From assembly GCA_964486045.1 (NCBI GenBank), contig CAZALK010000021.1, positions 8,684 to 72,683 of the forward strand: a DNA stretch of 64,000 nucleotides. The letters are read 5' to 3'. A model generated the notes under the pieces. That model did not search any database and had not been told where the DNA came from. It saw nothing but the letters and a program-made list of their open reading frames with translations. Positions 43,896-63,168 of this stretch are shown piece after piece. The translations under genes and the position numbers were made by a program. How positions within the stretch are numbered: the stretch's first letter is position 1; the number at the start of each line of letters is the position of its first letter. Source of the DNA: an uncultured archaeon (GTDB lineage: Archaea > Asgardarchaeota > Lokiarchaeia > Sigyniarchaeales > SOKP01).

Positions 43896-43981
43896 TATCA
43901 ATAACTTTTTTTTATATTTTTAATAGTATTTAAATTAATCTTGAAAAGATTAAGTGTTTCTAAAAAGAAATTTTCATAATT

Positions 43982-44767: not shown

Positions 44768-44844
44768 TTATCACAAAAAGTAAAGATATTTGGGTATATG
44801 TAGAAATTAAGAAATCAAATATTAGGGGAGTTACCTTTGAATTA

Positions 44845-45771: not shown

Positions 45772-45806
45772 TTCAGATATTACTAAATCTAATTAAATTG
45801 TTTATT

Positions 45807-47030: not shown

Positions 47031-47777
47031 AATTCTTTTTATTCTTGTTAAGTCATCAATCGTTAAATTTAAAGTATTATCACCTTTCCTAAATTGCATT
47101 ACTCCCTCATGATTAATTCCTTTACAAAAATATCTCTTTGAATCATCAAGAATGACTTCCCTTTCATAAATTCTCAAATATTGATTATATTCCTGGATTA
47201 ATTGTTGAGTTTCTTTTTCATTGTGTTCCGTAATTGGTGAAAAGTAGTGCTTTACGCGAGAACGTATCTGTTGAGCAAATTGATCTAACGAAACTTCTTT
47301 TTTTATTATGTCTTTGATGGATATTGTAATCGATTTTAGATTATTTGGCATCGCATTACTTGAGTTATTTAAATTTACTCCCATTCCAATCAAAAGATAA
47401 TTTCTTCGAGGACTTACAATATAATCAATTAGGATTCCTGCAAGTTTTTTATTTTCATACAATAAATCATTTGGCCACTTAATTTGAACTACTAAATTAT
47501 ATTCCTCTTTAATAACTCGTGTTAGCATGATAGCAGTAAAATAATGAAATAGAGCTAATTGTGATTTATTTAAATCTAATGAAATAGAAATTCCAAGAGT
47601 TGCCCAAAATCCCCCCTCCGGGGAAACCCAATCATCTTCTCTCCTTCCACGCCCTTTAGTTTGGATTTTAGCAATTAATAATATTGATGGGTAATAATCA
47701 TTTTTTAGGTATTCAACTACAGCATCTTGGGTAGAGCTTGTTTTATCAATGTGAATAATCTTTATTTTAGAAAGCAT
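47025..47777 (-). CDS. birA: Biotin-[acetyl-CoA-carboxylase] ligase, no N-terminal HTH (group I)
   Basis: 250-aa ORF. It has TSSTQD, the biotin/ATP loop TKGRGRREDDWVSPEGG, and IKWPNDLLYENKKLAGIL. Confidence 0.8.
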   Translation of the reverse strand: MLSKIKIIHIDKTSSTQDAVVEYLKNDYYPSILLIAKIQTKGRGRREDDWVSPEGGFWATLGISISLDLNKSQLALFHYFTAIMLTRVIKEEYNLVVQIKWPNDLLYENKKLAGILIDYIVSPRRNYLLIGMGVNLNNSSNAMPNNLKSITISIKDIIKKEVSLDQFAQQIRSRVKHYFSPITEHNEKETQQLIQEYNQYLRIYEREVILDDSKRYFCKGINHEGVMQFRKGDNTLNLTIDDLTRIKRIL

Positions 47778-48100: not shown

Positions 48101-49672
48101 ATGATTCTAAAAGATAACGAGTCAAAAGACAACTTCAAAATTACTGAAAAACTGCAAGAGTTGAGAGAAGAATCCCGAATTGGAGGCGGAAAAGAACGTA
48201 TTGATACTCAACATAAGAAAGGTAAGCTAACAGCTCGAGAAAGGATTGAATTGTTAGTAGACTATGAGTCATTTATCGAAATTGGCTCGTTGGTTAAGCA
48301 TCGCTCCTACAAATTTGGATTAGAGAATAAAAGATTTCTTGGAGATGGAGTTGTCACTGGTTATGGAACAATAAATGGCCGAAAAGTGTTCATTTATAGC
48401 CAAGATTTTACAGTACTTGGTGGAACTATTGGAAAAGCTCATGCTCAAAAAATATGCAAAATTATGGATTTAGCATTAAAAATGGGATGTCCTGTGATCG
48501 GTCTAATAGATTCGGGAGGTGCTCGGATCCAAGAAGGCGTTGATGCATTAGATGGATTAGGAGATATATTTTATCGAAATGTACAGGCATCAGGAATTAT
48601 TCCTCAAATATCTGTAGTTTTAGGTACTTCTGCTGGAGGAGCTGCCTATAGTCCAGCATTAACCGATTTTCTTATTATGGGTGGAAAAAACGCCTTTATG
48701 TTTATCACAGGACCTCAAGTGGTTAAATCAGTAACGGGAGAAGATGTGTCATTTTTGGGATTAGGAGGCCCTGAAATTCACTCAACAATTTCTGGTGTTT
48801 GTCACAGAGTTGCGGATACTGAAGAAGAAGCACTAGAACTCGTTAGGAAATTATTAACTTACTTGCCATCAAATAATTTAGATGATCCCCCGTCCCCTTT
48901 AGAAAAATTTAATGCAATGGATCCTTATCTATTAAATAAAGTTGTGCCCGAAAGTGAAAATGAACCGTATGATATGGAAACATTAATTAATTTAGTTGTT
49001 GATCAAGAATCATTCTTCGAAATTTTCCCTAATTGGGCTAAAAATATCGTTATTGGGTTTGGAAGGATAGAGAATCAAACAGTGGGTATTATTGCTAACC
49101 AACCGCTATATCTAAGTGGTGCAATTGATTATAATGCATCTGATAAAGCCGCTAGGTTTATTCGATTTTGTGATTCATTCAATATTCCTCTAATAACACT
49201 TGTTGATGTTCCGGGATTTATACCAGGGATAAAACAAGAAAATTCAGGAATTATCAGACACGGCGCCAAATTAATTTATGCTTATTCTGAGGCAACTGTA
49301 GTAAAAATTACGGTAATTATCCGTAAAGCTTATGGAGGAGCATATATTGTAATGAACTCAAAACAGTTAGGTTCAGATATCAATTTAGCTTGGAATTCTG
49401 CTCAAATTGCTGTTATGGGTGCAGAAGGAGCTTGCAAAATTCTTTTTCGAAATCATTTAAAGGAGACAGAAGATCCTGATAAAATGTTAAAAGAATTCAC
49501 AGAAGAATACAGGAAAGAATTTTCTAATCCATATCATGTAGCTGAAAAGGGACAAATAGACAAAGTAATTTTTCCACATGAGACTCGTCTTGAAATCGTT
49601 AAAAGCTTGAAATTTTTTGAAACAAAACGTGATCAGTCTCCTAAGCGAAAACACGGGATTTCTCCTGTTTAA
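48101..49672 (+). CDS. Acyl-CoA carboxylase carboxyltransferase subunit (PccB/AccD-like, fused N- and C-CT halves)
   Basis: 523-aa ORF. It has GGGKERIDTQHKKGKLTARERI, GDGVVTGYGTINGRKVFIYSQDFTVLGGT, DSGGARIQEG, GTSAGGAAYSPALTDF, GRIENQTVGIIANQP, PLITLVDVPGF and RKAYGGAYIVM. Confidence 0.85.
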   Translation: MILKDNESKDNFKITEKLQELREESRIGGGKERIDTQHKKGKLTARERIELLVDYESFIEIGSLVKHRSYKFGLENKRFLGDGVVTGYGTINGRKVFIYSQDFTVLGGTIGKAHAQKICKIMDLALKMGCPVIGLIDSGGARIQEGVDALDGLGDIFYRNVQASGIIPQISVVLGTSAGGAAYSPALTDFLIMGGKNAFMFITGPQVVKSVTGEDVSFLGLGGPEIHSTISGVCHRVADTEEEALELVRKLLTYLPSNNLDDPPSPLEKFNAMDPYLLNKVVPESENEPYDMETLINLVVDQESFFEIFPNWAKNIVIGFGRIENQTVGIIANQPLYLSGAIDYNASDKAARFIRFCDSFNIPLITLVDVPGFIPGIKQENSGIIRHGAKLIYAYSEATVVKITVIIRKAYGGAYIVMNSKQLGSDINLAWNSAQIAVMGAEGACKILFRNHLKETEDPDKMLKEFTEEYRKEFSNPYHVAEKGQIDKVIFPHETRLEIVKSLKFFETKRDQSPKRKHGISPV

Positions 49673-49693
49673 TATTTATAATTGTTGATTTTT

Positions 49694-52600
49694 ATGAAGA
49701 AGAGAAAAGATGTTTTAGATATTTTAGGCAAGGGAAGGATTCCCATATGGGGTTATTCGCCAAAGGGTATAACTGATCCTGCACTTTCAATTGAAATTTG
49801 CCGAATGGGAGGTGTTGGTTTAGTTGATCTTGAAGGATTGAACATAAATCAATGCCAAACACTTCTTAATAAGTGTTTTACGTTAATGTCTTCTGATCAT
49901 TTATGGGGAATTAGAGTATCTACCAATGAAATTCTTAATTATCTTGAATTTCAAGATGTGGTCCCAATTATTATCTGTGCGTTTTCACCAGATTCAAAAG
50001 ATATTGCAAAGTTGAAAAAAACCTCAAATTTACTCCTTTCTGAAGTTTCTTATTTAGAAGAAGCTTATAAAAATGCAGATTGGGCTGAATTATTTCTTGT
50101 AAAAGGAAGTGAAGCAGGGGGAATGGTTGGTGTAAAAAATAGCTTTATTCTTATTCAAGAATTTTTTAAAGCTGGACTCTCTTTTGTAATCCAAGGGGGA
50201 TTTGGAGTATTCAATATCTCCTCAGCCTTTATTGGTGGTGCTTTAGGTGTAGTTGTAGAAAGCCAGCTATTTCTTCTTCCTGAATGTCCGCTAAGTCCTG
50301 AATTTAAAGATTATATCAAGACCATTGAAGAGACCGATTTTTACATTTTTAAAGAAACATCACGGTTTAATTACCGTTTAATTGGAAAGTTAGCTAATAA
50401 ATCTATTCGCTCATTAAAAGAAATTGAAAAAAAAGAATTTTCAAAACTCAATGAAGAATTCCATGCAGAACTTGGTAACCTAAAAGAGAAGCTTAAAACG
50501 AAAATAAATGAACTCGCAAATAATCAGAAAATTTATTCTGATCTTGAACCAAAACATTCTTGGCTACCTAGCGACCAAGGTATTACTTTTGCGAAATTTA
50601 TTCTCGATTCGTTCAATAATTTAGAAAATTTTTTACAGAGTATACCAAAGATAATTCAGAAACAGTTAGAAAGTGTTAAGGAACGGTGGCCGTTTGCGAA
50701 AAATTCTGATTTTGCCAAGAATTTTAATATCATTTATCCTGTTATTCAAGGTCCGATGGCGAATGTTTCTGATCACATTGCTTTTGCTACAAAAATTGCT
50801 GAAAATGGGGCACTTCCAATATTCGCTCTCGGTGGTTTACTGGAAAATGAAGCTTCTGCTTTATTGAGTGAAGCTAAATCGAGTAAATTATCTGAGACCT
50901 CATATGGATCAGGGATCATTGGCCTAGAGGCAGTTAAAGCTCGTAGGGAGGAGCATCTTAAGTTAATTTCTAAATTTGGCCCTAAAATCACACTAGTCGC
51001 GGCTGGATCCGTCGATTTAGGTTTACGAGTCAAAAATCTTGGAAATACCGTATTAATTCATACACCCGCTTTATCAATGTTCAAGGATGCCTTAAAAAAA
51101 CACCTTGATTTTATGATTTTAGAAGGGAGTGAGTGTGGAGGTCATTTTGGGATTCTTTCTTCTTTTATTTTATGGGAATGTATTTTGGAATATTTATATA
51201 TAAGCAAGCAAGAGAGAAAAGAAAAAGTCAATCTTATTTTCGCCGGTGGTATCATAAATGATATAAGCACCGCGATGCTTGCTGGCATGATTGGAGAGCA
51301 CCTTGATATTATTAACCCTGGAATTCAAATGGGTACTGCTTATTTATTGAGTGAAGAGATTGTTAACACTCAAGCATTATCACCAGTTTATCAAGCACTA
51401 TTATTGAATAATTCATGTACAACCGTAATTGGAACGAGCGTAAATACTCGTGCAAGAGTAATCCCTTCAGAATTTGCGTTTAATACTATAAAAAATGAAA
51501 ATTTACGGAAAACTCAAGGGATTTCTATTTCAGAACGAAAGGAAATGTTCGAAAAAGATAATTTAGGAGCATTAAGAATTGCTACAAAAGCAGAAATTTG
51601 GAATGAAAATCACATTGAAGGAAGTGGTACTACGCAATTTATTCCTACATCTAATAAAAGACAATTAACTGATGGGGCTTTTATGACAGGTGAATCAATT
51701 GCACTACAAAAAACATTAAGAAGCATATCTCAAATTCATTACGATGTCATAGAGGGAGGTAGAAAATCCTTTAATATAAAGGTATCTCAACTTTTTAATG
51801 AAATCTTGGAATACAAACCAAAGAAAAGTGAAAAAAAAATGGGAAGTGGTGTATCTTTTGGAAAAAAAGTTGCTATTATTGGGTTAGGTGGGATTTTTCC
51901 GGATGCTGAAAACATTCCAAAATTCTGGGAAAATATCAAAAATAAAAAATACTCAATTATAGAAGTTCCAAATGAAAGGTGGGATCCTGAAATATTCTAT
52001 AATAAAGATCACTCCGTCCCCGAAAAAACCTACACAAAAATCGGTGGATTTATCAAAAACTTTGAATTCAAGTCAATTAAATATCGCATCCCTCCAAAAA
52101 TGGCAGAAAGGATGGATTTAGTCCAAAAATTGGCTGTTAAAACTGCAGAAGAAGCACTTATCGATGCGGGGTATCCTACTAATGCGAAACAACGGTTACC
52201 TATTGCAACTATAGTTGGTAACTCCTCTGGAGGAGATGCTCAACGTCTCAGTAATAAACGCATAATTTTTAGTGAGATTAAATACAGAATTAACGAAGCT
52301 AGTTCTCAAAAGATTCTAAACCAAGATCAAAAAAATAATCTTCTAAACTTCCTTGAAGAGAAAATTGTAAAACAAATTCCAACGATTAATGAAGATTCCA
52401 TGCCCGGTGAATTATCAAATATTATTGCAGGCAGAGTAGCAAATGTATTTAATCTAACAGGCAAGAGTATGTCAATAGACGCTGCTTGTGCTTCAAGTTT
52501 AGCTGCTATCGATACTGCTATTAATGGGTTACTTGTGAAGGATTATGACGCTGTTTTAGTAGGTGGTTCAGATAGTTCAATGGATCCACAGACTTTCATA

Positions 52601-55600
52601 AAATTCTGTAAAATTGGGGCTTTATCTGAAAACGGTTCTTATCCTTTTGATGCTCGTGCAGATGGATTTATTATGGGGGAAGGAGCAGGATTTATGGTTT
52701 TAAGACTACTTGAGGATGCTATACGAGATAAAAATAAGATTTATGCTATCATTAGTGGATATGGAGGTTCTTCTGATGGAAAAGGAAAGGGAATTACAGC
52801 TCCAAACCCTGATGGACAAAGGTTAGCTATTGAGCGAGCTTTAAATGATAGTAATACCAAACCATCAGAGATTCAATATCTTGAATGTCATGGAACTTCT
52901 ACAATCGTTGGAGATGCTACTGAATTGAACGTACTAAAACAATTTTTCTCTGGCAGAGATATGAATCAAAAATTAGCGATTGGGTCAATAAAAAGTCAAA
53001 TTGGGCATCTCAAAAGTGCATCCGGTATCGCAGGTATCATCAAGAGTGTACTAGCATTACACCATAAGATAATTCCCCCTTCAGTAAATTATGTTACTCC
53101 TAACCCTTCAATAGATTGGGAGACAAGCCCATATTATGTTAATACTGAACCTATTAGTTGGATATCCCCTGAAGATAACATAAGAAGAGCAGGGGTATCT
53201 TCATTTGGATTTGGCGGAACTAATTATCATGTTATTCTTGAAGAATTTATTCCTCAATTATATGATGCAACTCCTTTTGCTAGTCAAAAAGATCCAATTC
53301 CCGATAATTTACTCGATTCTATTCCTTCTACTATTGCGGTTTCTCCAGAGCTTTGCTTTTTATTCAGCGGTCAAGGAAGCCAATATGTAGGAATGGCTAA
53401 AGAGTTATATCAAAAATATCAAATTATAAAGAATACACTTGACAATGCTAATGAAATATGCAAAAATTTTGGTGGATTCGATTTACTTGAAATAATATTC
53501 GGATCTCCAGAAATAACTGAAGAGGAAAGCTCAAACAAATTACGCCAAACTCAATATACTCAACCTGCTATTTATTCAGTTGAGATGGCGTTATATAACC
53601 TTTTTTATTCAAAAGGAATTATCCCGGGGTTAGTCGGAGGTCATAGTCTTGGAGAATTTGCAGCATTGGTTACTGCTGGTGTATTAAATTTTGAGGATGG
53701 TTTGAAAGTAGTAATAACTCGAGGAAAAGCTATGGCGGAATTACCCCCTGGAGTTGAATGTACTATGGCTGCTATCTTTGCATCTTCAGAAATTGTTGAA
53801 AAAACATTAAAGGAACTATCTGTAGAAAATGTTTCAATTTCTAATTATAATTCAACTTCACAAATAGTTATAGCAGGTGAAGTCTCTGAAATTGAGTCCG
53901 CAGTGAGTACTTTCTCAGAAAAAGGGATCCGGGCTATAAAATTAAACGTTTCAAATGCGTTTCACTCTAAATATGTTGCTCATGCTGAGGAAAAGTTGAA
54001 ATCATTTCTTAAATCAATCAAGTTTAACACCCCCAGAATTCCAGTATTTAGTAATGTTACTGGGAAAATCTACCCGGAAGATCCTGAAAAAATTAAATCA
54101 ATTCTTCTTAAACAAATTACATCTCCTGTAAGGTGGGTTGATGAAACTTTAAATATTTATCACCATGGGGGCAGAAAATTTCTGGAAATAGGACCGAAAA
54201 AAGCTCTGTTCTTCTTTACTAAAGATATTTTAAAGAAACATAAAAATATTGAAGTAAATTATACACTTTCACCAAAAGCTCCCGAAGGAGAACACATTCA
54301 GAAAATCCTTGAGCAGTTTAAGACTCTTGCACCAAAAAAATCCGTTGAACCTGTTAAGACTGCATTACAATCTCAACAAGTTTCTAAGTCAAGTTTAACT
54401 CCAACTTCTACTAGAGTTCCTACAACCCAATTTATTCCTAGATCTAATGATGAAATAAATAAAATAAGACAATTACCTTTCTTTAATGAATTTTTGGAAG
54501 AGCAAAAAGAATTATTATCTTCAGTTCTAATTCAAGGATTTCAAAGCTATATGAAGAAATATCAATCTTCTTTTAAACAACCGTCCACTTTAGATGGACC
54601 CAAATTCAATGCTGATCCTATTATGATAACTGGAGTAGGATTGGGACTTCCTGGAAAAAATCGGAATGTTTTTGATGATCAAAATATTGATGATATTCTC
54701 CACGGAATAAATTTAATTGAACCAGTAGGGAAAGAATTTGAAACTCAATTACTCCAACAGAATATCATTCGGTTAGAAAAATCACCAAATGGGAATGCTA
54801 CATTTCAACCTGTAGATGAATTATCTAAAGTTATACACCTTGCAGGGCAATTGGGAAAATTTAATCCCACCGATGATTATCAATTTGATGCTAAAATGCT
54901 AAATGCTTTAGATATTACTTATCAACTCGCAATTTGTGCTGGATATGATGCGTTAAAGGATGCGGGTATTCCTTTAGTGCGAACTAGAATTAAAACGTCT
55001 ACGGGTAAGATTTTACCTGGTGATTGGGTATTACCCGAAGATATTCAAGATGAGACAGGAATTGTCTTTGCATCCGCATTTCCGGGATTGGACAATTTCA
55101 CAGATGAGTTATCATCCAAATCTGATGGTGACGCTTCGGAGAGGGATAATAATTTTAACCGTGCATTTTTGTTTCGAGTATTATCAATGGGTCATTCTCA
55201 GTTTGCCCAATTAATAAAAGCAAAGGGCCCAAACACAGCCGTTAATGCAGCTTGTGCCTCTACACCTCAAGCTATAGGGGTTGCAGAAGATTGGATACGA
55301 ACAGGCAGATGTAAAAGGGTAATTGTAATTTCTGCTGATAATGTTACAAGCAAAAATCTTTTTCAATGGATTGGCGCTGGATTTCTAACAAGTGGGGCAG
55401 CAACAACACAATCTCGATGGGAAGATGCAGTTCTCCCATTTGGTAAAGGGAGAAATGGGATCATAATAGGTGCTGGAGCAGGTGCATTTGTTATTGAACA
55501 AGAGTCTGAAGCTAAAGCCCGAGGCGTAAAACCAATAGTAGAAATCCTTGGAACTTCTTTTGTAAATAGCGCATATCATGGAACTCGACTGGATAAAGCC

Positions 55601-58600
55601 CATATTAGTCGAAAATTAGATGAATTCGTTACAGAAATGGTGGAAAGGCATGGTATTACTAAAAATGAAATGGCTAATGAGGGAATGTTTGTAAGTCATG
55701 AAACATATTCCCCAGCTCGAGGAGGAAGTGCTGAATCTGAACTAGATGCTTTAGAACAAACTTTTGGTAAAAATGCTTATGATATAGTAATAGTCAATAC
55801 TAAAGGTTACACGGGTCATGCAATGGGAGCAGGAATTGAAGAAGCAGTAGCGATAAAATCCATGGAGAGGGGTATTATTCCTCCCGTAGCAAATTTGAAA
55901 AGAATTGATCCAAATTTTAAAAAATTTAAATTTGCCAAAGGTTCAAATGAAAGGAAAAAATATGCCCTACGTCTAGCTGCTGGGTTTGGTTCTCAACTCG
56001 CTCTTGTTTTGTTCCGTTTAGTTTCTTATAATAATCGGTTAGGTAAAATTGAGTATAGTCGTTGGCTTCAAAAAATAGGAGGAGGTATGAAGCATTTGTT
56101 TGATGATGGAAGAGTATTAAAGATGAACACAGAGCTTATTAAACCTACCCAAACATCTTTATCACCAAATTCAAAGGAAACTACTCAAAGATCAGATATT
56201 ATTGAAACGATTGATATCTCAAATCAAATCAAACAAATTATTTCATCAAAAACAGGCTATGATCCTGGCGATATTGAAGAAGATTATGATTTGGAAGAAG
56301 ACCTTGGAATTGATACCGTAAAGCAGGCAGAAATTTTTGGAGAAATTCGAGAAAAATGGAATATTGAAATTGATGATTCATTCAATTTAGCAGATTATCG
56401 AACAATTAATGCTATTGTTCAAATGCTTACTGAATTTTTGGATTCTGATACTTCCTCCAGTACAGTTGTTTTTAGTCCAGATAACAGACAACTTGAAGAA
56501 AAACTAATTCAGATTATTTCTGAAAAAACAGGGTATGACACCGAAGATATTGATGTGAATTTTGATCTGGAAGAAGATTTAGGTATCGATACTGTGAAAC
56601 AAGCAGAAATTTTTGGGGAAATGCGAAATTTTCTGAAGATCCCAGAAGAAACAGAAATAAATCTAGCAGGATTAAAAAGTATTAAAGACATAATTCAACA
56701 AATTCAAGAAAACTTAAATATCCAAAGTATAAAAACCGATACTGATGTTCCACAAAAAGACATAACTACGGAAATGGGTGAAACTTCAAATACAAAACAA
56801 GTGAGTAATGTGGTGAAGAAGATCATTGCCGACAAAACAGGCTATGAAATTTCGGATATTGAGGATTCTTATGACTTAGAAGAAGATTTGGGGATTGATA
56901 CAGTAAAACAAGCTGAGATTTTCGGTGAATTGCGAGAGTTTTATAATCTAGAAGAATCTATTGAGATCAATTTGACAGAAATACGCACACCTTCTGAGAT
57001 AACAAATTTTATTATGCAGTTTGTGAGTAAAACTCTAAAATTAGAGGAAGAAAAATTAGAGATCCCTATAAATATGGGAAAATCCTTAGAGAAACTGGAG
57101 GAGGACGTTGAGGAAGAGATTTACGTCTCACAAGTAATTCCTTCTCGTATTTTTAACCTACAATCTTCCAAAAAGATTCCAAAATTTAAGAATTTTGAAG
57201 CACTTATATTAAATATTAATTCAAGTTTATCAAATTACCAAAATTTACGTGAAGACTTCCAAAAAATAGGATTAAAAACTCAAATTTTCGACATTACTAG
57301 TGAAGAAAATTACATAAAAGATCTAAAAAATACAAAAAGTGAATCTCTTTTAGATGGTGATTTTAAAGTTATCATCCTAGTTGTTCCAGACAATACTCAA
57401 TATTCCCTCAATGATAGTTTGTCTTTTTTTGACAGTTTATTTATTATTTTTCAATCATTAAATATTTCTATTATAGAAAAAATCATTATTCTTTCTCCAG
57501 AAAGCTACTTCGGGTGGGAACAAGGGGCTAACGCTCTCTCTTCTAGTATTGGTGCTTTCATCAAATCTATTAATAGAGAGTTTCAAATACCAATCAAGCA
57601 CATTTACTCGGTGAATCCGGAGCAAATTAACCAAGAAATTTTAATATGGGATAATATTGAAGAGGTAGCCTATAAAGATAACATTCGGTATACATTGTTA
57701 AGAAAAAAAATAGAAGAATTTCCTAAACAAGGTAACTATTCAATAACAAAAGATGATGTATTATTGGCCACAGGAGGTGCCCAGGGAATCACTTTTGCTT
57801 GTATAGACGAATTGACGAATAGTATTAAACCACACCTGATATTACTAGGATTGGCCCCTTATGAGGATTCATTACATGAATACCTACATCAATCTCCAGA
57901 AAAATTAGAGGAAAAGAAGCAAGAAATAACTATTTTGATGAAGTCTAAACAGGAAAAGGTAACTCCTGTTATGATTAAAAGAGAATGGAAAAATTTTCAA
58001 GATAAATTGGATACTCTTCGAAACGTAGAAAGTTTAAGGAATAAGGGTTTAGAAGTCCAATATTACGCAGTTGATGTAACCAACGACGAAAAAATGCAAA
58101 AAACATTCCAACAAATCCATAAAGACGTTGAAAAACCAATAACGATCGTCGTTCATGGAGCTGGTATCGAAGAATCAAAGAGTTTTCTGAAGAAAAATTT
58201 GAAGATGGCCCATTTAGTTGTTAATGTTAAAGTAGGAGGCTTTTTAAATGTTCTCAAGCATTTAGAACTTCAAAACATGAAATTATTTATGGCATTTTCA
58301 TCAGTTGCTGGGCGTTATGGCAATCAAGGTCAAATTGATTATGCTTTTGCAAATGCTTATTTATCAAGGCTGGCTTGGGACTATTCTCAGCGAAAAATCC
58401 CATTCTTAGCTATAGATTGGACAGCTTGGGCAGGTATTGGAATGGCCACTCAGGGTTCAACCCTACAAATCCTTACTCAAGCAGGAGTTGTCCCTGTCCC
58501 ACCACAAATTGGTGTTAATATATTTTCCAAATTACTATTAAATAATTTCAAAGGAGAATATATTGTTGGTGGAAAACTGGGGATTTTTGAAGAAAAACTA

Positions 58601-60187
58601 AATGTTACTAAAACAATTAACAAATTGGAATTTCCGATGATAGATAAAATGAATTATCAACCAGATTTTATCATTGGTTCAAACACCCTAAACTCTGAAT
58701 TTGACATTTATTTACACGATCATCAAATTCAGCAAAAACCAGTATTCCCTGGTGTAATGGTTCTGGAAACTTTCGCAGAATTCTATAACAATGTATTTGA
58801 AAAACCCATGGCTTCTATTTCAAAAGTTAACTTCCACACTCCCTTAAAAATTCCATTAAACAAGCCAGTTGAAGTTGAACTGAAGTATAATTATTCTAAC
58901 AATGAAATTACTCTTTTATCGAAGACTTATCCTCTTGTTTTGAAAGGAAAACCCCTAATTAAGGAACACTTCAATGCAGAGCTTGGAAAATCAATAAAAA
59001 AAATGAAATGGAAAAAGGAACCTATTTTAGAACCATTAATCCCTCTACTTGATAAAAACGATATATACGAGATTTTCTTCCATGGAAAAAGTTTCCAAGT
59101 GTTAGATGAAATTATTCAACTAGAAAATGGAAAAATAATAGCAAAAGTTGATATTCCAACAACTTCACTAACCAGAAATAGTGAAGGAGATAAATTTCAA
59201 CTCGAACCATTAGCAATAGAAAGTATTTTTCAAACAGCCGCATTGTTTGATGTTATTGTTAATAATCACATATCTCTTCCCTCTAAAATTTCCACTCTTG
59301 AAATATTATCAAACCAAAAACCGAAATACATAGTTGCTAAATTTTTGAAAAAAGATAAAGAACGTTCATACTATAATTCTGTGATCTTGGATGAAAATCA
59401 CGAGATTATTATGAAAGTTTCAAATCTGGAAATTATCCATTCTCCACTTTCATTTGACATATCAGAAAGTCTATCTAATTATTTAGCTACATTAAAAGAA
59501 TATTATCTTCTTAAAAATGGTAAGAACTCTAACATTTTTCACATCCTTCCTATTGAGAAATTAAAACTTTTATATCAAACAGATCCAAAATTTTTAGAAA
59601 CTCATCTAACTGAATATGAAATTGATGCTTCCAAAAGATTTAGAAATGAAAAACGAAAACTCGAATATTTTTCAGGAATTATTACTGCGAAAGAATGTTA
59701 TATAAGACAATCACCTGAAATTCTCTCTTATCACGATATTGAAATTCAAAAGAATGAAAAAGGAAAACCTTTCTATTATTCAAACAATACTAAGCAGAAA
59801 ATCCCAATTAATCTTTCAATTAGCCATTCACATGAATTTTCTGTAGCAATCATGAGTAAAAACCAAGTTGGGATCGATTTAGAGATAATAGAATCACGAT
59901 CTCCTTCTTTCTATAAAGAAGTGTTTACTGAATCTGAGATAGAGTTAATTTCGGAAAATAATAAATTAGGTACTCTATATTTTACTGCTAAAGAAGCCTT
60001 TTCAAAAGCGATTGGGGAAGGTTTTAATGTTAATTTTCGTGATGTTGAATTAAAGTATAATGAAAAGCAGAAGAAATTTTCTTTGATCGCTAAAAAAGAT
60101 CAACCAGAATTCAATAAAAAATTCAAAAAATTAATATTAAAATCTGAATTCACTGAAAAATATGTGATATCTTATTGCGAGATTTAA
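49694..60187 (+). CDS. Type I iterative FAS/PKS-like megasynthase (PUFA-synthase-like): NMO-like barrel, ER, KS, AT, KS, ACP x3, psiKR/KR, DH, PPTase
   Basis: A single uninterrupted frame runs 49682..60187 (3501 codons from TTG). ATG at 49694 is the likelier start, 21 nt after the carboxyltransferase stop. Domain motifs are listed in the separate domain features. Residue numbers follow the 49682 ORF-track translation. Confidence 0.9.
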   Translation: MKKRKDVLDILGKGRIPIWGYSPKGITDPALSIEICRMGGVGLVDLEGLNINQCQTLLNKCFTLMSSDHLWGIRVSTNEILNYLEFQDVVPIIICAFSPDSKDIAKLKKTSNLLLSEVSYLEEAYKNADWAELFLVKGSEAGGMVGVKNSFILIQEFFKAGLSFVIQGGFGVFNISSAFIGGALGVVVESQLFLLPECPLSPEFKDYIKTIEETDFYIFKETSRFNYRLIGKLANKSIRSLKEIEKKEFSKLNEEFHAELGNLKEKLKTKINELANNQKIYSDLEPKHSWLPSDQGITFAKFILDSFNNLENFLQSIPKIIQKQLESVKERWPFAKNSDFAKNFNIIYPVIQGPMANVSDHIAFATKIAENGALPIFALGGLLENEASALLSEAKSSKLSETSYGSGIIGLEAVKARREEHLKLISKFGPKITLVAAGSVDLGLRVKNLGNTVLIHTPALSMFKDALKKHLDFMILEGSECGGHFGILSSFILWECILEYLYISKQERKEKVNLIFAGGIINDISTAMLAGMIGEHLDIINPGIQMGTAYLLSEEIVNTQALSPVYQALLLNNSCTTVIGTSVNTRARVIPSEFAFNTIKNENLRKTQGISISERKEMFEKDNLGALRIATKAEIWNENHIEGSGTTQFIPTSNKRQLTDGAFMTGESIALQKTLRSISQIHYDVIEGGRKSFNIKVSQLFNEILEYKPKKSEKKMGSGVSFGKKVAIIGLGGIFPDAENIPKFWENIKNKKYSIIEVPNERWDPEIFYNKDHSVPEKTYTKIGGFIKNFEFKSIKYRIPPKMAERMDLVQKLAVKTAEEALIDAGYPTNAKQRLPIATIVGNSSGGDAQRLSNKRIIFSEIKYRINEASSQKILNQDQKNNLLNFLEEKIVKQIPTINEDSMPGELSNIIAGRVANVFNLTGKSMSIDAACASSLAAIDTAINGLLVKDYDAVLVGGSDSSMDPQTFIKFCKIGALSENGSYPFDARADGFIMGEGAGFMVLRLLEDAIRDKNKIYAIISGYGGSSDGKGKGITAPNPDGQRLAIERALNDSNTKPSEIQYLECHGTSTIVGDATELNVLKQFFSGRDMNQKLAIGSIKSQIGHLKSASGIAGIIKSVLALHHKIIPPSVNYVTPNPSIDWETSPYYVNTEPISWISPEDNIRRAGVSSFGFGGTNYHVILEEFIPQLYDATPFASQKDPIPDNLLDSIPSTIAVSPELCFLFSGQGSQYVGMAKELYQKYQIIKNTLDNANEICKNFGGFDLLEIIFGSPEITEEESSNKLRQTQYTQPAIYSVEMALYNLFYSKGIIPGLVGGHSLGEFAALVTAGVLNFEDGLKVVITRGKAMAELPPGVECTMAAIFASSEIVEKTLKELSVENVSISNYNSTSQIVIAGEVSEIESAVSTFSEKGIRAIKLNVSNAFHSKYVAHAEEKLKSFLKSIKFNTPRIPVFSNVTGKIYPEDPEKIKSILLKQITSPVRWVDETLNIYHHGGRKFLEIGPKKALFFFTKDILKKHKNIEVNYTLSPKAPEGEHIQKILEQFKTLAPKKSVEPVKTALQSQQVSKSSLTPTSTRVPTTQFIPRSNDEINKIRQLPFFNEFLEEQKELLSSVLIQGFQSYMKKYQSSFKQPSTLDGPKFNADPIMITGVGLGLPGKNRNVFDDQNIDDILHGINLIEPVGKEFETQLLQQNIIRLEKSPNGNATFQPVDELSKVIHLAGQLGKFNPTDDYQFDAKMLNALDITYQLAICAGYDALKDAGIPLVRTRIKTSTGKILPGDWVLPEDIQDETGIVFASAFPGLDNFTDELSSKSDGDASERDNNFNRAFLFRVLSMGHSQFAQLIKAKGPNTAVNAACASTPQAIGVAEDWIRTGRCKRVIVISADNVTSKNLFQWIGAGFLTSGAATTQSRWEDAVLPFGKGRNGIIIGAGAGAFVIEQESEAKARGVKPIVEILGTSFVNSAYHGTRLDKAHISRKLDEFVTEMVERHGITKNEMANEGMFVSHETYSPARGGSAESELDALEQTFGKNAYDIVIVNTKGYTGHAMGAGIEEAVAIKSMERGIIPPVANLKRIDPNFKKFKFAKGSNERKKYALRLAAGFGSQLALVLFRLVSYNNRLGKIEYSRWLQKIGGGMKHLFDDGRVLKMNTELIKPTQTSLSPNSKETTQRSDIIETIDISNQIKQIISSKTGYDPGDIEEDYDLEEDLGIDTVKQAEIFGEIREKWNIEIDDSFNLADYRTINAIVQMLTEFLDSDTSSSTVVFSPDNRQLEEKLIQIISEKTGYDTEDIDVNFDLEEDLGIDTVKQAEIFGEMRNFLKIPEETEINLAGLKSIKDIIQQIQENLNIQSIKTDTDVPQKDITTEMGETSNTKQVSNVVKKIIADKTGYEISDIEDSYDLEEDLGIDTVKQAEIFGELREFYNLEESIEINLTEIRTPSEITNFIMQFVSKTLKLEEEKLEIPINMGKSLEKLEEDVEEEIYVSQVIPSRIFNLQSSKKIPKFKNFEALILNINSSLSNYQNLREDFQKIGLKTQIFDITSEENYIKDLKNTKSESLLDGDFKVIILVVPDNTQYSLNDSLSFFDSLFIIFQSLNISIIEKIIILSPESYFGWEQGANALSSSIGAFIKSINREFQIPIKHIYSVNPEQINQEILIWDNIEEVAYKDNIRYTLLRKKIEEFPKQGNYSITKDDVLLATGGAQGITFACIDELTNSIKPHLILLGLAPYEDSLHEYLHQSPEKLEEKKQEITILMKSKQEKVTPVMIKREWKNFQDKLDTLRNVESLRNKGLEVQYYAVDVTNDEKMQKTFQQIHKDVEKPITIVVHGAGIEESKSFLKKNLKMAHLVVNVKVGGFLNVLKHLELQNMKLFMAFSSVAGRYGNQGQIDYAFANAYLSRLAWDYSQRKIPFLAIDWTAWAGIGMATQGSTLQILTQAGVVPVPPQIGVNIFSKLLLNNFKGEYIVGGKLGIFEEKLNVTKTINKLEFPMIDKMNYQPDFIIGSNTLNSEFDIYLHDHQIQQKPVFPGVMVLETFAEFYNNVFEKPMASISKVNFHTPLKIPLNKPVEVELKYNYSNNEITLLSKTYPLVLKGKPLIKEHFNAELGKSIKKMKWKKEPILEPLIPLLDKNDIYEIFFHGKSFQVLDEIIQLENGKIIAKVDIPTTSLTRNSEGDKFQLEPLAIESIFQTAALFDVIVNNHISLPSKISTLEILSNQKPKYIVAKFLKKDKERSYYNSVILDENHEIIMKVSNLEIIHSPLSFDISESLSNYLATLKEYYLLKNGKNSNIFHILPIEKLKLLYQTDPKFLETHLTEYEIDASKRFRNEKRKLEYFSGIITAKECYIRQSPEILSYHDIEIQKNEKGKPFYYSNNTKQKIPINLSISHSHEFSVAIMSKNQVGIDLEIIESRSPSFYKEVFTESEIELISENNKLGTLYFTAKEAFSKAIGEGFNVNFRDVELKYNEKQKKFSLIAKKDQPEFNKKFKKLILKSEFTEKYVISYCEI
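49733..50326 (+). other. Megasynthase domain 1: short NMO/FabK-like TIM-barrel lacking the conserved His
   Basis: About aa 18-215. It has ICRMGGVGLVDL, LWGIRV, LVKGSEAGGMVG (Met148, ATG 50123..50125, sits where the family has GGH), VIQGGFG, and GALGVVVESQLFLLPEC. Confidence 0.55.
50726..51751 (+). other. Megasynthase domain 2: FMN-type enoyl reductase (NMO / FabK / PfaD-like)
   Basis: About aa 349-690. It has NIIYPVIQGPMANVSDHIAFATKIAENGALPIFALGG, ILEGSECGGHFG (His488, CAT 51143..51145), IFAGGIINDISTAMLAGM and IQMGTAYLLSEE. Confidence 0.75.
51863..53245 (+). other. Megasynthase domain 3: ketosynthase KS1 (Cys-His-His)
   Basis: It has KKVAIIGLGGIFPDA, IDAACASSLAAI (Cys936, TGT 52487..52489), YLECHGTSTIVGD (His1070, 52889..52891), SQIGHLKSASG (His1109, 53006..53008) and SSFGFGGTNYHVILEE. 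Confidence 0.9.
53351..54215 (+). other. Megasynthase domain 4: acyltransferase (malonyl-CoA:ACP transacylase type)
   Basis: It has LCFLFSGQGSQYVGM, QTQYTQPAIY, GHSLGEFAAL (Ser1322, AGT 53645..53647), NVSNAFHSKYV and PVRWVD. Confidence 0.9.
54614..56020 (+). other. Megasynthase domain 5: second ketosynthase KS2, divergent but with an intact Cys-His-His
   Basis: It has DPIMITGVGLGLPG, GPNTAVNAACASTPQAIG (Cys1858, TGT 55253..55255), FVSHETYSPARGGSAESELDAL (His aligned to the CHGT of KS1), NTKGYTGHAMGAG and LAAGFGSQLALVLF. Confidence 0.8.
56216..56440 (+). other. Megasynthase domain 6a: ACP repeat 1 (PfaA-type) with Thr at the expected Ser position
   Basis: The sequence is IISSKTGYDPGDIEEDYDLEEDLGIDTVKQAEIFGEIRE. 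Thr2212 is encoded by ACC at 56315..56317. Confidence 0.8.
56492..56716 (+). other. Megasynthase domain 6b: ACP repeat 2 with Thr at the expected Ser position
   Basis: The sequence is IISEKTGYDTEDIDVNFDLEEDLGIDTVKQAEIFGEMRN. Thr2304 is encoded by ACT at 56591..56593. Confidence 0.8.
56801..57036 (+). other. Megasynthase domain 6c: ACP repeat 3 with Thr at the expected Ser position
   Basis: The sequence is IIADKTGYEISDIEDSYDLEEDLGIDTVKQAEIFGELRE. Thr2407 is encoded by ACA at 56900..56902. Confidence 0.8.
57361..58590 (+). other. Megasynthase domain 7: ketoreductase (structural psiKR sub-domain + catalytic KR)
   Basis: The psiKR part is FKVIILVVPDN...IIILSPESYFGWEQGANALSSSIGAFIKSINREF. The catalytic part starts at about 57752 with VLLATGGAQGITFACI, VVHGAGI and FSSVAGRYGNQGQIDYAFANAYL (Tyr2887, TAT 58340..58342). 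Confidence 0.8.
58636..59460 (+). other. Megasynthase domain 8: PKS-type (double hot-dog) dehydratase
   Basis: YLHDHQIQQKPVFPGVMVLE follows the HxxxGxxxxP-type motif with Gln in place of Gly (His3014, CAT 58721..58723). A later LEPLAIESIFQTAALF corresponds to the DxxxQ-like motif, here ExxxQ. Confidence 0.7.
59607..60184 (+). other. Megasynthase domain 9: C-terminal 4'-phosphopantetheinyl transferase
   Basis: It has RFRNEKRKLEYFSGIITAKECYIR, KNEKGKPFY, LSISHSHEFSVAIMS, VGIDLEIIESR, FTESEIELI and LYFTAKEAFSKAIGEGF. The last two match the PPTase motifs GIDxE and W/FxxKEAxxKxxG. Confidence 0.8.
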
Positions 60188-60220: not shown

Positions 60221-61000
60221 ATGGAAAAAATCATAATAGAAATTAAGGTACGCTCTGAAATTTTACACAGTATTCTTTTTTTACCTGAATCCAAGAATGG
60301 TAAACTCTTCCCTCTCGTTATCCGTGTTAATGGGTTGCCAGGAAAATCACCCGAAGAAGATGAGCAAAGATTTGCACAATATTTTATAGAAAATAACATT
60401 GCTTATTTCACTTACGATCATCAAGGAGTAAGAACGAGTACTGGAGTTTTCACCTATTATGATGCTCAAGCAAATATTGAAGAAGTAATAAATATTTTAG
60501 TCCATAATCCAAAAATTAATCCATTAAAAATTGGATTGCTGGGTGAAAGTTTTGGTGGGGCAATGATTCTTTGCCATGCCGTTAGAGATAAACGAGTAAA
60601 ATGTCTTGCTGTTCGCTCGCCAGTTTTTGACACCGAAATTATCCCTAAAAATCCGTTGTTTAAGTTTTTCATAAGAGCGTTGACTCGAAATAAGGAAATG
60701 AGGTTTGCAGATATTGATTTTAAGAAAGAATATTCTAAACAAACTAAGCAATTTAATCCTGACAAATTAGCTAATTTTTTAACAAAACCATTTTATCTAA
60801 TCGCAGGAAATAAAGATGCGTTATTCCCAGAAAAAGGATTTCATGAGCTTTTTAACAAAGTTAAATCTAAGGAGAAAAAAATTGAGATACTTGATGGGGC
60901 GAACCATAATTTTACTGATAAAAATCATTTTCAAACAATGTGTGAGAAGGTCGTTGAATTTTTTAATATTCATCTAGTATCAAATAATAAAAATCTATAA
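60221..61000 (+). CDS. Alpha/beta-hydrolase (candidate thioesterase/releasing enzyme for the megasynthase)
   Basis: 259-aa ORF starting 33 nt after the megasynthase stop. The nucleophile elbow is LLGESFGGAM, the acid candidate is AGNKDALFP, and the His candidate is DGANHNF. A thioesterase role is inferred from position only. Confidence 0.6.
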   Translation: MEKIIIEIKVRSEILHSILFLPESKNGKLFPLVIRVNGLPGKSPEEDEQRFAQYFIENNIAYFTYDHQGVRTSTGVFTYYDAQANIEEVINILVHNPKINPLKIGLLGESFGGAMILCHAVRDKRVKCLAVRSPVFDTEIIPKNPLFKFFIRALTRNKEMRFADIDFKKEYSKQTKQFNPDKLANFLTKPFYLIAGNKDALFPEKGFHELFNKVKSKEKKIEILDGANHNFTDKNHFQTMCEKVVEFFNIHLVSNNKNL

Positions 61001-61013: not shown

Positions 61014-61490
61014 ATGCAAAGACAAGTCAAATTTCGCGGAAGAGACTATATCATCACTCCGCTAGACGATGGAAAATTAAAGGTTGATGATCATATTTAT
61101 TCCCCAATAGTGATTCAAGAGACTGCAAAATTATATCGAGTGACATTTGAGGATTGCCAGTTTAATTTGGAACTTATTGATGGAAAATTGTTTTTAGAGG
61201 GTGAAGAAATTGATATTGAAATAAAACCCTATTTAAAAGCAGTAGATTCTGGTTCTGCAAGCCAAGTAGCGAAAATGGTTATAGTAAGGGCTCCTATTCC
61301 CGGGAAAATTTTACAAATTTTAACACGGGAGAACGAACGTGTTGAAAAAGAACAGCTAATTCTTATATTAGAAGCGATGAAAATGAAAAATAGGATATTA
61401 TCTCCTATAAAGGGTACTATTACACAAATTTTTGTTGATGTTGATGAGAATGTTGGACAAGATCAACAGTTAATTAAAATTGAAAATTAG
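61014..61490 (+). CDS. Biotin carboxyl carrier protein (biotinyl domain) with an unrecognised N-terminal ~80 aa
   Basis: 158-aa ORF starting 13 nt after the hydrolase stop. The C-terminal biotinyl domain is APIPGKILQILTRENERVEKEQLILILEAMKMKNRILSPIKGTITQIFV. The biotinyl-Lys123 of the AMKM motif is AAA at 61380..61382. Confidence 0.85.
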   Translation: MQRQVKFRGRDYIITPLDDGKLKVDDHIYSPIVIQETAKLYRVTFEDCQFNLELIDGKLFLEGEEIDIEIKPYLKAVDSGSASQVAKMVIVRAPIPGKILQILTRENERVEKEQLILILEAMKMKNRILSPIKGTITQIFVDVDENVGQDQQLIKIEN

Positions 61491-61500: not shown

Positions 61501-62979
61501 TTATCGGACCTGCTCAATTTTAGCATAATCCCGCCATTTAGTAGATGTTTTTGAGATAGTTTGAATTGGCTGAATTGAATAATTAAGCTCTTTGACGAAT
61601 TGAAAAACCGCTGCTAACTTTTTTCTTTCAAGATCTTTCAAATCCTTTATAATGTTTGTTCGAACTAAGAAGTCGGTGGATAGATCCCCTTTTTTAAATT
61701 CTTTTGTTTCTACTATTACTTTATGCAAGTCTAAATTGGTGTTAATCCCTGAAATGGCTAATTCTTTTAAAGCACTAATGGAAAGATTTATTGCTCTCTT
61801 CCTTGTTTTCCCCCAAACTATTAATTTCCCAATTAATGAATCAAAATTGTGAGGAATTACATAATTTGGATATATATGACTATCAAATCGGACTTTTGGG
61901 CCACCTGGAACGATTAAGCGAGTAATTTTCCCATTCTGAGGCATGAACGAATTATTAGGATCTTCAGCATTTATTCGAAATTCAATCGCGTGACCGTTAA
62001 ATGAAATTTCCTCTTGTGTGAAGCTTAAAGGTTTGTTTGAAGCGATACTTAATTGTTCTTCAACTAAATCTATACCTGTTACCATTTCAGTAACTACATG
62101 TTCCACTTGGATCCTTGGGTTTACTTCATTAAAATAGAGCTTGTTATCCTTCCAAAGAAATTCAGCTGTACCTACATTTGAATATCCTAATTCACGGGCT
62201 AATAAGCATGTTTTTTCCCCTAAATCATTAACGATTTCTCTCGGTAAAAATGAAGGGGCTTCCTCAATAAGTTTTTGATGCGATCGTTGGATCGTACATT
62301 CCCGATCCCCTAAATGGACGATATTCCCAAAATTATCTCCCATAAATTGAATTTCTACATGGCGGGGAGCATTAACTGATTTTTCAATTAATACTTCTTC
62401 ACGACCAAAATATTTTAAGGCAATTAATTGGCATCCCTCCATAGCAATCTTCAAATCATCCTCAGCTTCCACAATTTCCATTCCTCGACCTCCACCTCCG
62501 AAAGCTGCCTTAATAATTATAGGATAACCAATTTTATTCGCAATTGTTATTGCTTCTTTTAATGTTTTTACAAATCCATCTGAACCAGGTAGTACTGGTA
62601 ACCCAACTTTTTCACCAAGTTTTTTGGCCTGAACCTTATTACCTAAGAAATCAATAATATCCGGGCTAGGTCCTATAAAGGTTTTTCCCAATTTTATTAT
62701 TTCTCTAGCAAATTCTGCATTTTCACTTAAAAACCCATATCCGGGATGGACAGCATCAGCCTTAGAACGCTCAATTATGTCAAGTAGTTTTGGAATGTTT
62801 AAATAAGTACACTCAACTGACTCCTCTCCAATGCAATATGCTTCATCTGCCATTTTTACATGTAAAGAATCTTTGTCTTCTTCACAAAATACAGCAATGG
62901 ACCTTAAGTTTTTTATCCGGCAAGCACGTATCACTCGAACGGCGATTTCTCCTCGATTAGCAATTAATACTGAATGCAT
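61501..62979 (-). CDS. accC: Biotin carboxylase (ATP-grasp) subunit of acyl-CoA carboxylase
   Basis: The ORF runs 61501..62991, with ATG at 62979 (MHSVLIANRGEIAVRVIRA). It has HPGYGFLSENAEFA, IIKAAFGGGGRGM, HVEIQFMGD, ERECTIQRSHQKLIEEAP, GTAEFL, NPRIQVEHVVTE and EFRINAEDP. It has a C-terminal extension of about 45 aa. Its stop lies 10 nt from the BCCP stop (convergent). Confidence 0.9.
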   Translation of the reverse strand: MHSVLIANRGEIAVRVIRACRIKNLRSIAVFCEEDKDSLHVKMADEAYCIGEESVECTYLNIPKLLDIIERSKADAVHPGYGFLSENAEFAREIIKLGKTFIGPSPDIIDFLGNKVQAKKLGEKVGLPVLPGSDGFVKTLKEAITIANKIGYPIIIKAAFGGGGRGMEIVEAEDDLKIAMEGCQLIALKYFGREEVLIEKSVNAPRHVEIQFMGDNFGNIVHLGDRECTIQRSHQKLIEEAPSFLPREIVNDLGEKTCLLARELGYSNVGTAEFLWKDNKLYFNEVNPRIQVEHVVTEMVTGIDLVEEQLSIASNKPLSFTQEEISFNGHAIEFRINAEDPNNSFMPQNGKITRLIVPGGPKVRFDSHIYPNYVIPHNFDSLIGKLIVWGKTRKRAINLSISALKELAISGINTNLDLHKVIVETKEFKKGDLSTDFLVRTNIIKDLKDLERKKLAAVFQFVKELNYSIQPIQTISKTSTKWRDYAKIEQVR

Positions 62980-63168
62980 CACAAAAATCAAAATGAAATT
63001 TAATTAATAACGTTAATTACTTGTTTGATTAAATAATTATGTGTTTTATTAAAAATTGATGATTTTTTTAATATTAGATAAAAATTAAATTAGTTAAAGA
63101 AGCTTCTATTAATTATTAATCCACTTCTAAACAAGATTTTGAAGATAGTAAATTAGAAATAAGTATAA

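Follow-up and report, generated by a model that had tools for sequence, protein, structure and literature searches.

We analyzed a stretch of 64,000 nucleotides (nt), referred to below as the window, from an uncultured Asgard archaeon (GenBank assembly GCA_964486045.1, contig CAZALK010000021.1, positions 8,684 to 72,683 of the forward strand). On its plus strand lies a single open reading frame (ORF) encoding a megasynthase of 3,497 amino acids (aa), which runs from an ATG at position 49694 to a stop codon at 60187, with an in-frame TTG upstream at 49682. Gene prediction yielded an identical protein of 3,497 aa in each of three independent assemblies (two from ENA and one from Logan), which indicates that the ORF is not a chimera or an artefact of assembly. 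The GC content of the gene (33.3%) is close to that of the window (31.9%), so that its base composition does not look foreign. Scanning the full protein and nine sub-segments with the Pfam and NCBIfam models gave the domain order ER1-ER2-KS1-AT-KS2-ACP3-KR-DH-PPTase, in which two enoyl reductase (ER)-like domains, a ketosynthase (KS) and an acyltransferase (AT) are followed by a second KS, three acyl carrier protein (ACP) domains, a ketoreductase (KR), a dehydratase (DH) and a phosphopantetheinyl transferase (PPTase); the residue bounds given below are approximate. An initial annotation, made from the sequence alone, had listed these domains in this order with a single ER, and the profile searches bore out the list.

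The ER region comprises a degenerate FabK/NMO-like barrel (ER1, 49694..50653, aa 1-320, Pfam NMO 36 bits) and a FabK-type flavin mononucleotide (FMN) enoyl reductase (ER2, 50696..51613, aa 335-640, Pfam NMO and TIGR03151). KS1, a ketosynthase of the polyketide synthase (PKS)/PfaA type (51863..53251, aa 724-1186), has the motifs DAACASS, HGTST and GH in its translation, with Cys932, His1066 and His1105 as catalytic residues. The AT (53357..54268, aa 1222-1525) shows a malonyl-type pattern, with GHSLG (Ser1318) and NAFH, and scored 251 bits against the FabD model. It is followed by KS2, a FabF-like ketosynthase (54614..56023, aa 1641-2110), and by ACP1 (56225..56428), ACP2 (56501..56704) and ACP3 (56810..57013), which together span about aa 2178-2440 and are all matched by Pfam PP-binding. 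The stretch of about 200 aa that separates ACP3 from the KR matched no domain model. The catalytic subdomain of the KR (57764..58432, aa 2691-2913) contains GGAQGI and YAFAN, with Tyr2883 and Asn2887, and precedes a PKS-type double-hotdog DH (58676..59431, aa 2995-3246, PKS_DH_N and PS-DH) with the motifs HxxxQxxxxP and ExxxQ (His3010 and E3176xxxQ3180). The protein ends with an Sfp-type PPTase made of two ACPS subdomains (59552..60178, aa 3287-3495; VGIDLE, FTAKEAFSK, KGKP, LSISH), in agreement with the C-terminal fusion initially proposed.

Catalytic motifs are intact in KS1, AT, KS2, KR, DH, ER2 and the PPTase. Among representatives of the family clustered at 50% identity, the AT keeps GHSxG and xAFH, the KR its Tyr and Asn, the DH its His and E/DxxxQ, and the PPTase its D, E and KE residues. 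The only families matched in the Pfam scan of the protein were KS, AT, ACP, KR, PKS-type DH, NMO-type ER and PPTase. As initially noted, no FabA-type DH, chain-length factor (CLF) or thioesterase (TE) was detected in the megasynthase with the Pfam and NCBIfam models, and none of the ORFs scanned in the window contained a FabA-type DH or a CLF.

The N-terminal fusion of an FMN-type enoyl reductase, at first described as a single domain of PfaD/FabK type, was found to consist of two tandem FabK-like barrels, the halves of which align with each other. In a Foldseek search the best match of this region was FabK (2z6i, TM-score on target 0.71) versus only 0.34 for PfaD, and a PfaD-type identity was rejected on these scores in favor of the FabK type. 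An AlphaFold2 model of residues 1-720 averaged a pLDDT of 66, its alpha/beta barrel segments reaching 80-92 and its linkers being of low confidence, and was confident over residues 1-200, which belong to ER1. The motif SECGGHFG of ER2 carries His484, and in alignments with PDB entries ECGGHFG falls on ESGGHVG of crystallized FabK. In the motif SEAGGMVG of ER1, Met144 occupies the position of the FabK catalytic His. Among 27 aligned tandem-ER proteins from archaea and bacteria, the His of ER2 is invariant and the equivalent position of ER1 is M, I, L, W, R, K or F, never His. ER2 shares with FabK the TIM-barrel fold and the catalytic motif E(C/A)GGH; unlike FabK, it is fused into a megasynthase behind a degenerate paralogous barrel, and it reaches 59.5 bits against the FabK equivalog model TIGR03151, below the cut-off of 453, and is therefore no equivalog, with catalytic His and fold conserved. 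FabK-type reductases act as dimers, and the ER domains of the thraustochytrid polyunsaturated fatty acid (PUFA) synthase are reported to form a stable heterodimer.

Many bacterial members of the family without ER2 (representatives P0149, P0159, P0164, P0170, P0176 and P0249) begin with 250-350 aa in which a degenerate motif in the style of ER1, such as GREAGG or GLEAAG, was recognized by eye only. From this inspection by eye, a non-catalytic ER1-type barrel seems to be an ancestral and conserved part of the family. In the Kibdelosporangium locus (L015) an acyl-CoA dehydrogenase (ACAD) is called as fused to KS1; this assembly is ridden with frameshifts and the fusion may be an artefact. The idea that the 250-350-aa N-termini of high-GC bacterial members are ACADs came from that gene call and was dropped, an ACAD query having given no match; by eye they look like single ER1-type degenerate barrels instead.

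The initial annotation had pointed to a resemblance to the PfaA subunit of PUFA synthases, which held: the best NCBIfam model was TIGR02813 (PfaA), at 938.4 bits and below the curated cut-off of 1010.1, and the ACP region aligned to PfaA positions 1201-1486. The protein shares with PfaA the order KS-AT-tandem ACP-KR-DH, with a PKS-type DH, and the ACP sequence style. It differs from the PfaA system by the lack of PfaB and PfaC (KS-CLF and FabA-type DH) among the scanned ORFs of the window, by a FabK-like and fused ER in place of a separate PfaD, by a second KS in the same polypeptide and by threonine (Thr) in its ACPs.

The layout had also been described as matching no known system, which holds only in part, the core having been described before. 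Shulse and Allen (2011, PLoS One 6:e20146, PMC3098273) divided the pfa-like "secondary lipid" clusters into twenty types, among which Type R consists of one pfaA homologue with the order KS-MAT-CLF-ACP(3-6)-KR, then a PPTase gene, and was described from Koribacter and Solibacter (Acidobacteria), Elusimicrobium and Roseiflexus. The core KS-AT-second KS-tandem ACPs-KR, a dedicated PPTase and an occasional link to acetyl-CoA carboxylase (ACC) genes are common to both, an ACC gene interrupting the Type R cluster in Koribacter (PMC3098273), and the bacterial relatives of our gene fall in the same phyla as the published hosts. The Type R PPTases are characterized by the motifs P1a x(G/D)xP and P1b' hShxH and by the absence of P0 hRxhLS (PMC3098273); read from the translation, the PPTase domain has KGKP as P1a and LSISH as P1b', with no hRxhLS upstream, which fits this pattern. 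In contrast to Type R, where a separate PPTase gene lies downstream, the PPTase is fused here at the C-terminus and the FabK-like pair at the N-terminus; the host is an archaeon, a PKS-type DH is recognized after the KR and the ACPs carry Thr, a replacement of serine (Ser) not reported for Type R. Judged by its match to the published description, the gene is a variant of the Type R secondary lipid synthase in which the ER pair and the PPTase are fused. No later characterization of Type R was found in the literature searched.

The comparison also bears on the domain published as a CLF. The second KS between the AT and the ACPs, already recognized in the initial annotation, was confirmed as closest to the type II FabF enzymes, both in alignments with PDB FabF structures and with the fabF model (154 bits). 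The nearest PDB relatives of KS1 are ketosynthases of modular and iterative PKS. A CLF is recognized by the loss of its active-site Cys. A CLF status of KS2 was rejected, Cys1854, His2002 and His2042 being present and near-invariant across the family: among representatives of 50%-identity clusters, KS2 has its Cys in 143 of 144 and both of its His in all 144, and KS1 has its Cys in 88 of 88. Since Cys-His-His is kept family-wide, KS2 appears to be a real ketosynthase and the published label needs correction, a point that concerns the label and not homology. The Type R domain published as "CLF" is, as read from these residues, a second ketosynthase predicted to be catalytically competent. The same kind of evidence indicates a second correction to the published description of Type R, namely a predicted PKS-type DH with conserved His and E/DxxxQ after the KR.

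All three ACPs read 'EEDLGIDTVKQAEIFGE', with Thr where the phosphopantetheine Ser is expected. The acceptor-position residues are Thr2208 in ACP1 (within LGIDTVKQAE; nt 56315-56317, codon ACC), Thr2300 in ACP2 (nt 56591-56593, ACT) and Thr2403 in ACP3 (nt 56900-56902, ACA), each encoded by a different codon. The ACP motif DLGID.(I/V)K given in the initial annotation is present, and the residue left unspecified in it is Thr instead of the expected Ser in all three. In alignments with PigH, AcpM and other ACPs, this Thr falls on their phosphopantetheine Ser; the Ser found at the start of helix II in canonical ACPs is missing here, though Pfam PP-binding matches all three domains. Among 129 cluster representatives of the family, Thr occupies this position in 349 of 367 ACPs (95%) and Ser in 16 of 367. 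Ser and Thr codons are one base apart, and a 95% preference for Thr therefore looks selected. In the enzymes of Heimdallarchaeaceae the three ACPs carry Ser, Thr and Ser, which argues that both residues serve the same role. The simplest reading is that phosphopantetheine is most likely attached to Thr in these ACPs. Nothing on Thr as a phosphopantetheine acceptor was found in the literature searched. According to our domain map and to the published clusters (PMC3098273), a dedicated PPTase is always fused or adjacent in the family. If confirmed, Thr at the phosphopantetheine site would extend a carrier-protein rule treated as universal, and would account for the dedicated PPTase that always goes with these synthases.

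The synthase gene is embedded in a block of carboxylase genes. On the plus strand, the carboxyltransferase of an acyl-CoA carboxylase (CT, 48101..49672) ends 22 nt before the synthase start, an alpha/beta hydrolase with a GESFG nucleophile elbow (60221..61000), a candidate chain-releasing enzyme, starts 33 nt after the synthase, and the biotin carboxyl carrier protein (BCCP, 61014..61490) follows 13 nt after the hydrolase, so that just 13-33 nt separate the four genes. A biotin carboxylase of the AccC type (BC, 61501..62991) and a biotin-protein ligase (47025..47777), both on the minus strand, adjoin the block. Directly upstream, on the plus strand, genes for an ACAD, the electron transfer flavoprotein (ETF) subunits ETF-beta and ETF-alpha and a thiolase occupy 42705..47030. 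The order ligase/CT/synthase/hydrolase/BCCP/BC is kept in seven further Asgard loci with 61-86% protein identity, and the synthase recurs together with its operon in Hodarchaeales and Heimdallarchaeum genomes. Wherever the sequence of an Asgard locus reaches beyond the synthase gene, the hydrolase follows directly 3' of it. ACC genes accompany the synthase clusters of a Chloroflexi metagenome-assembled genome (MAG; L014) and of Kibdelosporangium (L015), and these two bacterial loci also place an ACAD, with or without ETF, beside the synthase. The carboxylase operon had been absent from the initial annotation, as had the Asgard host, the duplicated ER with its degenerate first copy and the Ser-to-Thr change in the ACPs.

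A radical SAM protein, weakly similar to YydG-type peptide epimerases and prokaryotic viperins, is encoded just before the ACAD genes (41679-42614, minus strand); a radical SAM gene also adjoins the cluster in L003/L004 and lies near it in L009.

We also considered a polyketide-type synthase whose product would be reduced in part, for instance to a polyene, a hydroxy-acid or the alkyl chain of a phenolic compound or glycolipid; the ER would act in some cycles only, and the ACAD and ETF would add or remove a double bond. The PKS affinities of KS1 and the DH agree with this, as do the ACAD and ETF genes kept beside the synthase in two distant lineages and the layout of the enediyne polyene synthases. 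These enzymes (PKSE: SgcE, CalE8) have the order KS-AT-single ACP-KR-DH-PPTase, without ER or second KS, and make a conjugated polyene. Both kinds of enzyme are iterative, type I and PfaA-related, with an integrated C-terminal Sfp-type PPTase for self-activation; the present one differs by its second KS, its two ER-like domains and its three ACPs, and genes associated with enediynes are absent. The fusion of a complete reductive loop, including a conserved catalytic ER, speaks against a partly reduced product, as does the lack of genes for tailoring enzymes, cyclases or glycosyltransferases nearby in the scanned window; the close link to a carboxylase points to bulk use of malonyl-CoA. A partly reduced polyketide seems quite improbable. 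With the type I fatty-acid synthases (FAS) of fungi and CMN bacteria, the enzyme has in common an FMN-type TIM-barrel ER, the nature of a single-system de novo synthase and, for fungi, a PPTase in cis. The order of these synthases (AT-ER-DH-MPT-ACP-KR-KS) and their families are entirely different, the KS, AT, KR and DH being here of PKS/PfaA type, and the initial statement that the protein is unlike metazoan, fungal and CMN-bacterial FAS holds.

To describe the family, KS2 was used to scan one genome per GTDB species, which led to seven loci, all in Asgard MAGs labelled Promethearchaeota, Candidatus Hodarchaeota or uncultured archaeon. Five of the seven have an intact ORF of 3,492-3,525 aa with identical domain order, three Thr-ACPs and the same synteny. 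In an Asgard MAG (L002, GCA_048937635.1, positions 5879-11861), the orthologous synthase is split between KS1 and AT in overlapping frames, which is probably an assembly frameshift and not a true split. An exhaustive KS2 search of 1.84 billion cluster representatives recovered 538 clusters at E <1e-30. Family architectures were taken from this representative search and a phmmer domain map, a separate word-indexed search having given only fragments of 340-860 aa. Most long representatives (at least 1,900 aa) have the order KS1-AT-KS2-ACPn-KR-DH, with or without PPTase; about twenty add the N-terminal ER1-ER2, and both fused and unfused PPTase forms occur. GenBank names for the family are generic, for instance "SDR family NAD(P)-dependent oxidoreductase".

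The full fused order is not peculiar to the window. Candidatus Heimdallarchaeum endolithica, which has a closed genome of 3.3 Mb, encodes a protein of 3,515 aa with identical order (UJG44031.1), and the Bradymonadales bacterium protein MBA2665313.1 has the same domain set with the ACPs displaced before KS2 (ER1-ER2-KS1-AT-ACP2-KS2-KR-DH-PPT). The synthase was also found in Ca. H. aukensis, in Heimdallarchaeaceae and Heimdallarchaeota MAGs and in an "Asgard group archaeon" (MEA2070463.1), and cluster look-ups (P0147, P0154 and P0131) gave relatives in a Thorarchaeota MAG and in Thermoplasmatales/Thermoplasmatota MAGs. Fragments labelled Halobacteriales and Methanobacteriota were among the word-indexed matches. 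A search with the ER1-ER2 segment returned only Asgard fragments (Promethearchaeota, a "Candidatus Thor..." MAG and Heimdallarchaeota) and the LCGC14 marine-sediment metagenome. Bacterial relatives, detected as fragment matches with 42-50% identity in KS2, belong to Chloroflexi (Chloroflexales), Acidobacteria, Actinobacteria, Myxococcota, Elusimicrobiota and others. In a KS2 tree, Hodarchaeales, Heimdall, Thor and Thermoplasmatota sequences grouped in a single region (30-50 leaves) away from most of the bacterial sequences; this neighbour-joining tree, built on Kimura-corrected distances without bootstrap, is to be read for coarse grouping only.

The nearest non-archaeal relatives being bacterial, and many database relatives being fragmentary or frameshifted, a bacterial contig mis-binned into Asgard genomes, an assembly chimera or a decaying pseudogene had to be considered. 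The leucyl-tRNA synthetase (LeuRS) encoded at 29089-31944 scored 972 bits with the archaeal model (cut-off 648) versus 131 bits with the bacterial one, and a Ras-family GTPase and other Asgard-typical genes lie on the same contig. The ORF is identical in the three assemblies, intact with the same synteny in five further species-level genomes and represented by an orthologue in the closed Ca. H. endolithica genome, and all its catalytic residues are intact. Contamination, chimerism and decay were rejected on the archaeal LeuRS, the three assemblies, the conserved synteny and the intact catalytic residues, and we regard them as extremely improbable.

The direct observations cover the identity of the domains, their intact and conserved residues of catalysis, the conserved operon, the archaeal nature of the host and the relationship to the family; taken together, they make it reasonably probable that this Asgard archaeon, of Hodarchaeales type, possesses a self-contained and self-activating iterative type I synthase of the Type R lineage, which builds a mostly saturated long acyl chain. 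The attachment to Thr, the division of labor between the KS domains, the role of ER1, the release step and the product are what we infer from them. The flanking biotin-dependent carboxylase (CT, BCCP and BC, with its own biotin ligase) would make malonyl-CoA. The C-terminal Sfp-type PPTase would convert the three tandem ACPs to their holo form in cis, with phosphopantetheine on Thr, and the malonyl-type AT would load them. KS1 and the FabF-like KS2 would both condense, probably at different stages of chain length, as the KS pair of PUFA synthases does. The KR, the PKS-type DH and the FabK-type ER2 would complete each reduction, with ER1 as a putative non-catalytic partner barrel, and the conserved downstream alpha/beta hydrolase would probably free the chain. 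Since the reductive loop is complete and an isomerising DH of the FabA type is lacking, the expected product is a long acyl chain that is saturated or mostly so, and the saturated or trans-unsaturated product initially predicted from the missing FabA-like DH is a reasonable proposal.

Several points weigh against this scheme. Phosphopantetheine on threonine is without precedent to our knowledge, and an S36T mutant of E. coli ACP is not known to be modified by AcpS. In PUFA synthases the ER can skip cycles, so that full saturation is not guaranteed. The hydrolase is recognized as a generic alpha/beta hydrolase only, and the polypeptide is without a TE or acyltransferase domain for release. The best model for the CT is of the methylmalonyl-CoA decarboxylase/propionyl-CoA carboxylase type, below cut-off, which makes malonyl-CoA a putative product of the carboxylase. 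ACAD and ETF genes, of which the scheme has no need, lie upstream of the synthase in this window, as they do in a MAG of Ardenticatenaceae (Chloroflexi; L014, 545-4133); they may mean an extra redox step, such as a desaturation or an alternative enoyl reduction. Finally, the product of Type R is listed as uncharacterized (PMC3098273).

The destination of the chain was considered along two lines. The synthase could be the primary and sole de novo fatty-acid synthase of the archaeon, serving ester-type or mixed membrane lipids and inherited vertically within Heimdallarchaeia. Its setting with a carboxylase and a biotin ligase is housekeeping-like, it is kept across Hodarchaeales, Heimdallarchaeaceae and other Heimdallarchaeota, and its GC content is close to that of the host. 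According to a 2024 preprint (10.1101/2024.07.05.601840), Archaea are devoid of FAS I and FAS II, and ACP or ACP synthase is hardly ever present in them, so that no competing ACP-dependent system would be expected; for organisms with an incomplete FAS II, some secondary lipid synthases have been proposed to serve as the core FAS (PMC3098273). However, no glycerol-phosphate acyltransferase was found in the gene neighbourhood scanned, and Ca. Heimdallarchaeum genomes lack 1-acyl-sn-glycerol-3-phosphate acyltransferase (PMC8813620), which weighs against a simple route to phospholipids of the bacterial type. Tandem ACPs and PfaA-like domains are, moreover, typical of accessory "secondary" lipids (PMC3098273). 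A role as the primary FAS is accordingly an idea that we hold to be unlikely.

The second line is a supply of long acyl chains to the OleABCD pathway of head-to-head hydrocarbon synthesis, yielding a specialized neutral lipid, as for the Pfa synthases of Shewanella. Complete OleABCD has been reported as a trait specific to a Hodarchaeales guild (preprint 10.1101/2024.07.04.601786), pfa-type clusters and ole genes occurred together in 55% of the genomes surveyed, pfa being needed for the Shewanella olefin (PMC3098273), and the hydrolase could free the acid for activation to its CoA ester. Nevertheless, no ole gene was found in the 64-kb window nor in the 10-kb flanks of the related loci, and the synthase also occurs in Heimdallarchaeaceae and Thermoplasmatota, lineages outside the Ole report. 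Such a link appears rather improbable, and the synthesis of a mostly saturated long acyl chain by a Type R-like enzyme, without further commitment as to its use, is the reading that we retain.

Other genes of the window were recorded. A protein of 397 aa encoded at 32043-33236 (minus strand) carries, after some 165 aa of N-terminal extension, a small GTPase domain of the Ras/Roc/Arf family (aa 167-329); such GTPases are typical of the Asgard "eukaryotic signature" proteins. A beta-propeller protein of 563 aa (4131-5822, plus strand) gave the BBS7 beta-propeller as its best Pfam match (2.2e-22) together with the BBS2 middle region and is thus BBSome-like, and an LRR protein is encoded on the same contig. 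Four PAS-rich sensors, all on the minus strand, lie at 9217-11115, 27003-28517, 33433-36555 and 36861-41522; histidine-kinase domains were recognized in three of them, and the fourth, of 1,553 aa, is listed by its many PAS domains only. ORFs of 561, 431 and 228 aa (22874-24559, 19936-21231 and 19228-19914, all on the minus strand) had no Pfam match at E <=1e-5. No tRNA genes were found in the window.

With respect to what was known, a system of the Type R kind had been described, without characterization; the fused ER-ER...PPTase form, its conservation with a carboxylase operon in Heimdallarchaeia and further Archaea, a second KS predicted to be active and the Thr carriers are new. None of these four features, and no description of the enzyme in Asgard archaea, was found in the literature searched, including the genome papers of the organisms that carry it. 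As far as its sequences indicate, the family is a clear exception to the stated absence of FAS and near-absence of ACP in Archaea, and ACP-dependent megasynthases are, on the gene content compiled here, more widespread in this domain of life than the literature states. A single ORF packs all the chemistry of a fatty-acid synthase with its carriers and its activating enzyme, in an operon with a carboxylase that putatively makes malonyl-CoA; direct functional testing by heterologous expression is thereby possible, and Hodarchaeales cultures now exist for lipid analysis.

The synthase is kept across the archaeal groups nearest to eukaryotes, and the gene bears on the question of the eukaryotic move from isoprenoid to fatty-acyl membranes, the "lipid divide". 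In its widest form, the proposal would be that fatty acids are made de novo in Heimdallarchaeia, including the Hodarchaeales placed beside eukaryotes, by an ACP-dependent synthase of type I that works on Thr-linked phosphopantetheine and has been inherited in the group since before the eukaryotic split. We put this forward as a tentative and, for the present, unlikely scenario. If true, Thr-linked phosphopantetheine would be a post-translational linkage new to the literature, and a bacterial-style route to fatty acyl chains would already have existed in the archaeal partner of eukaryogenesis.

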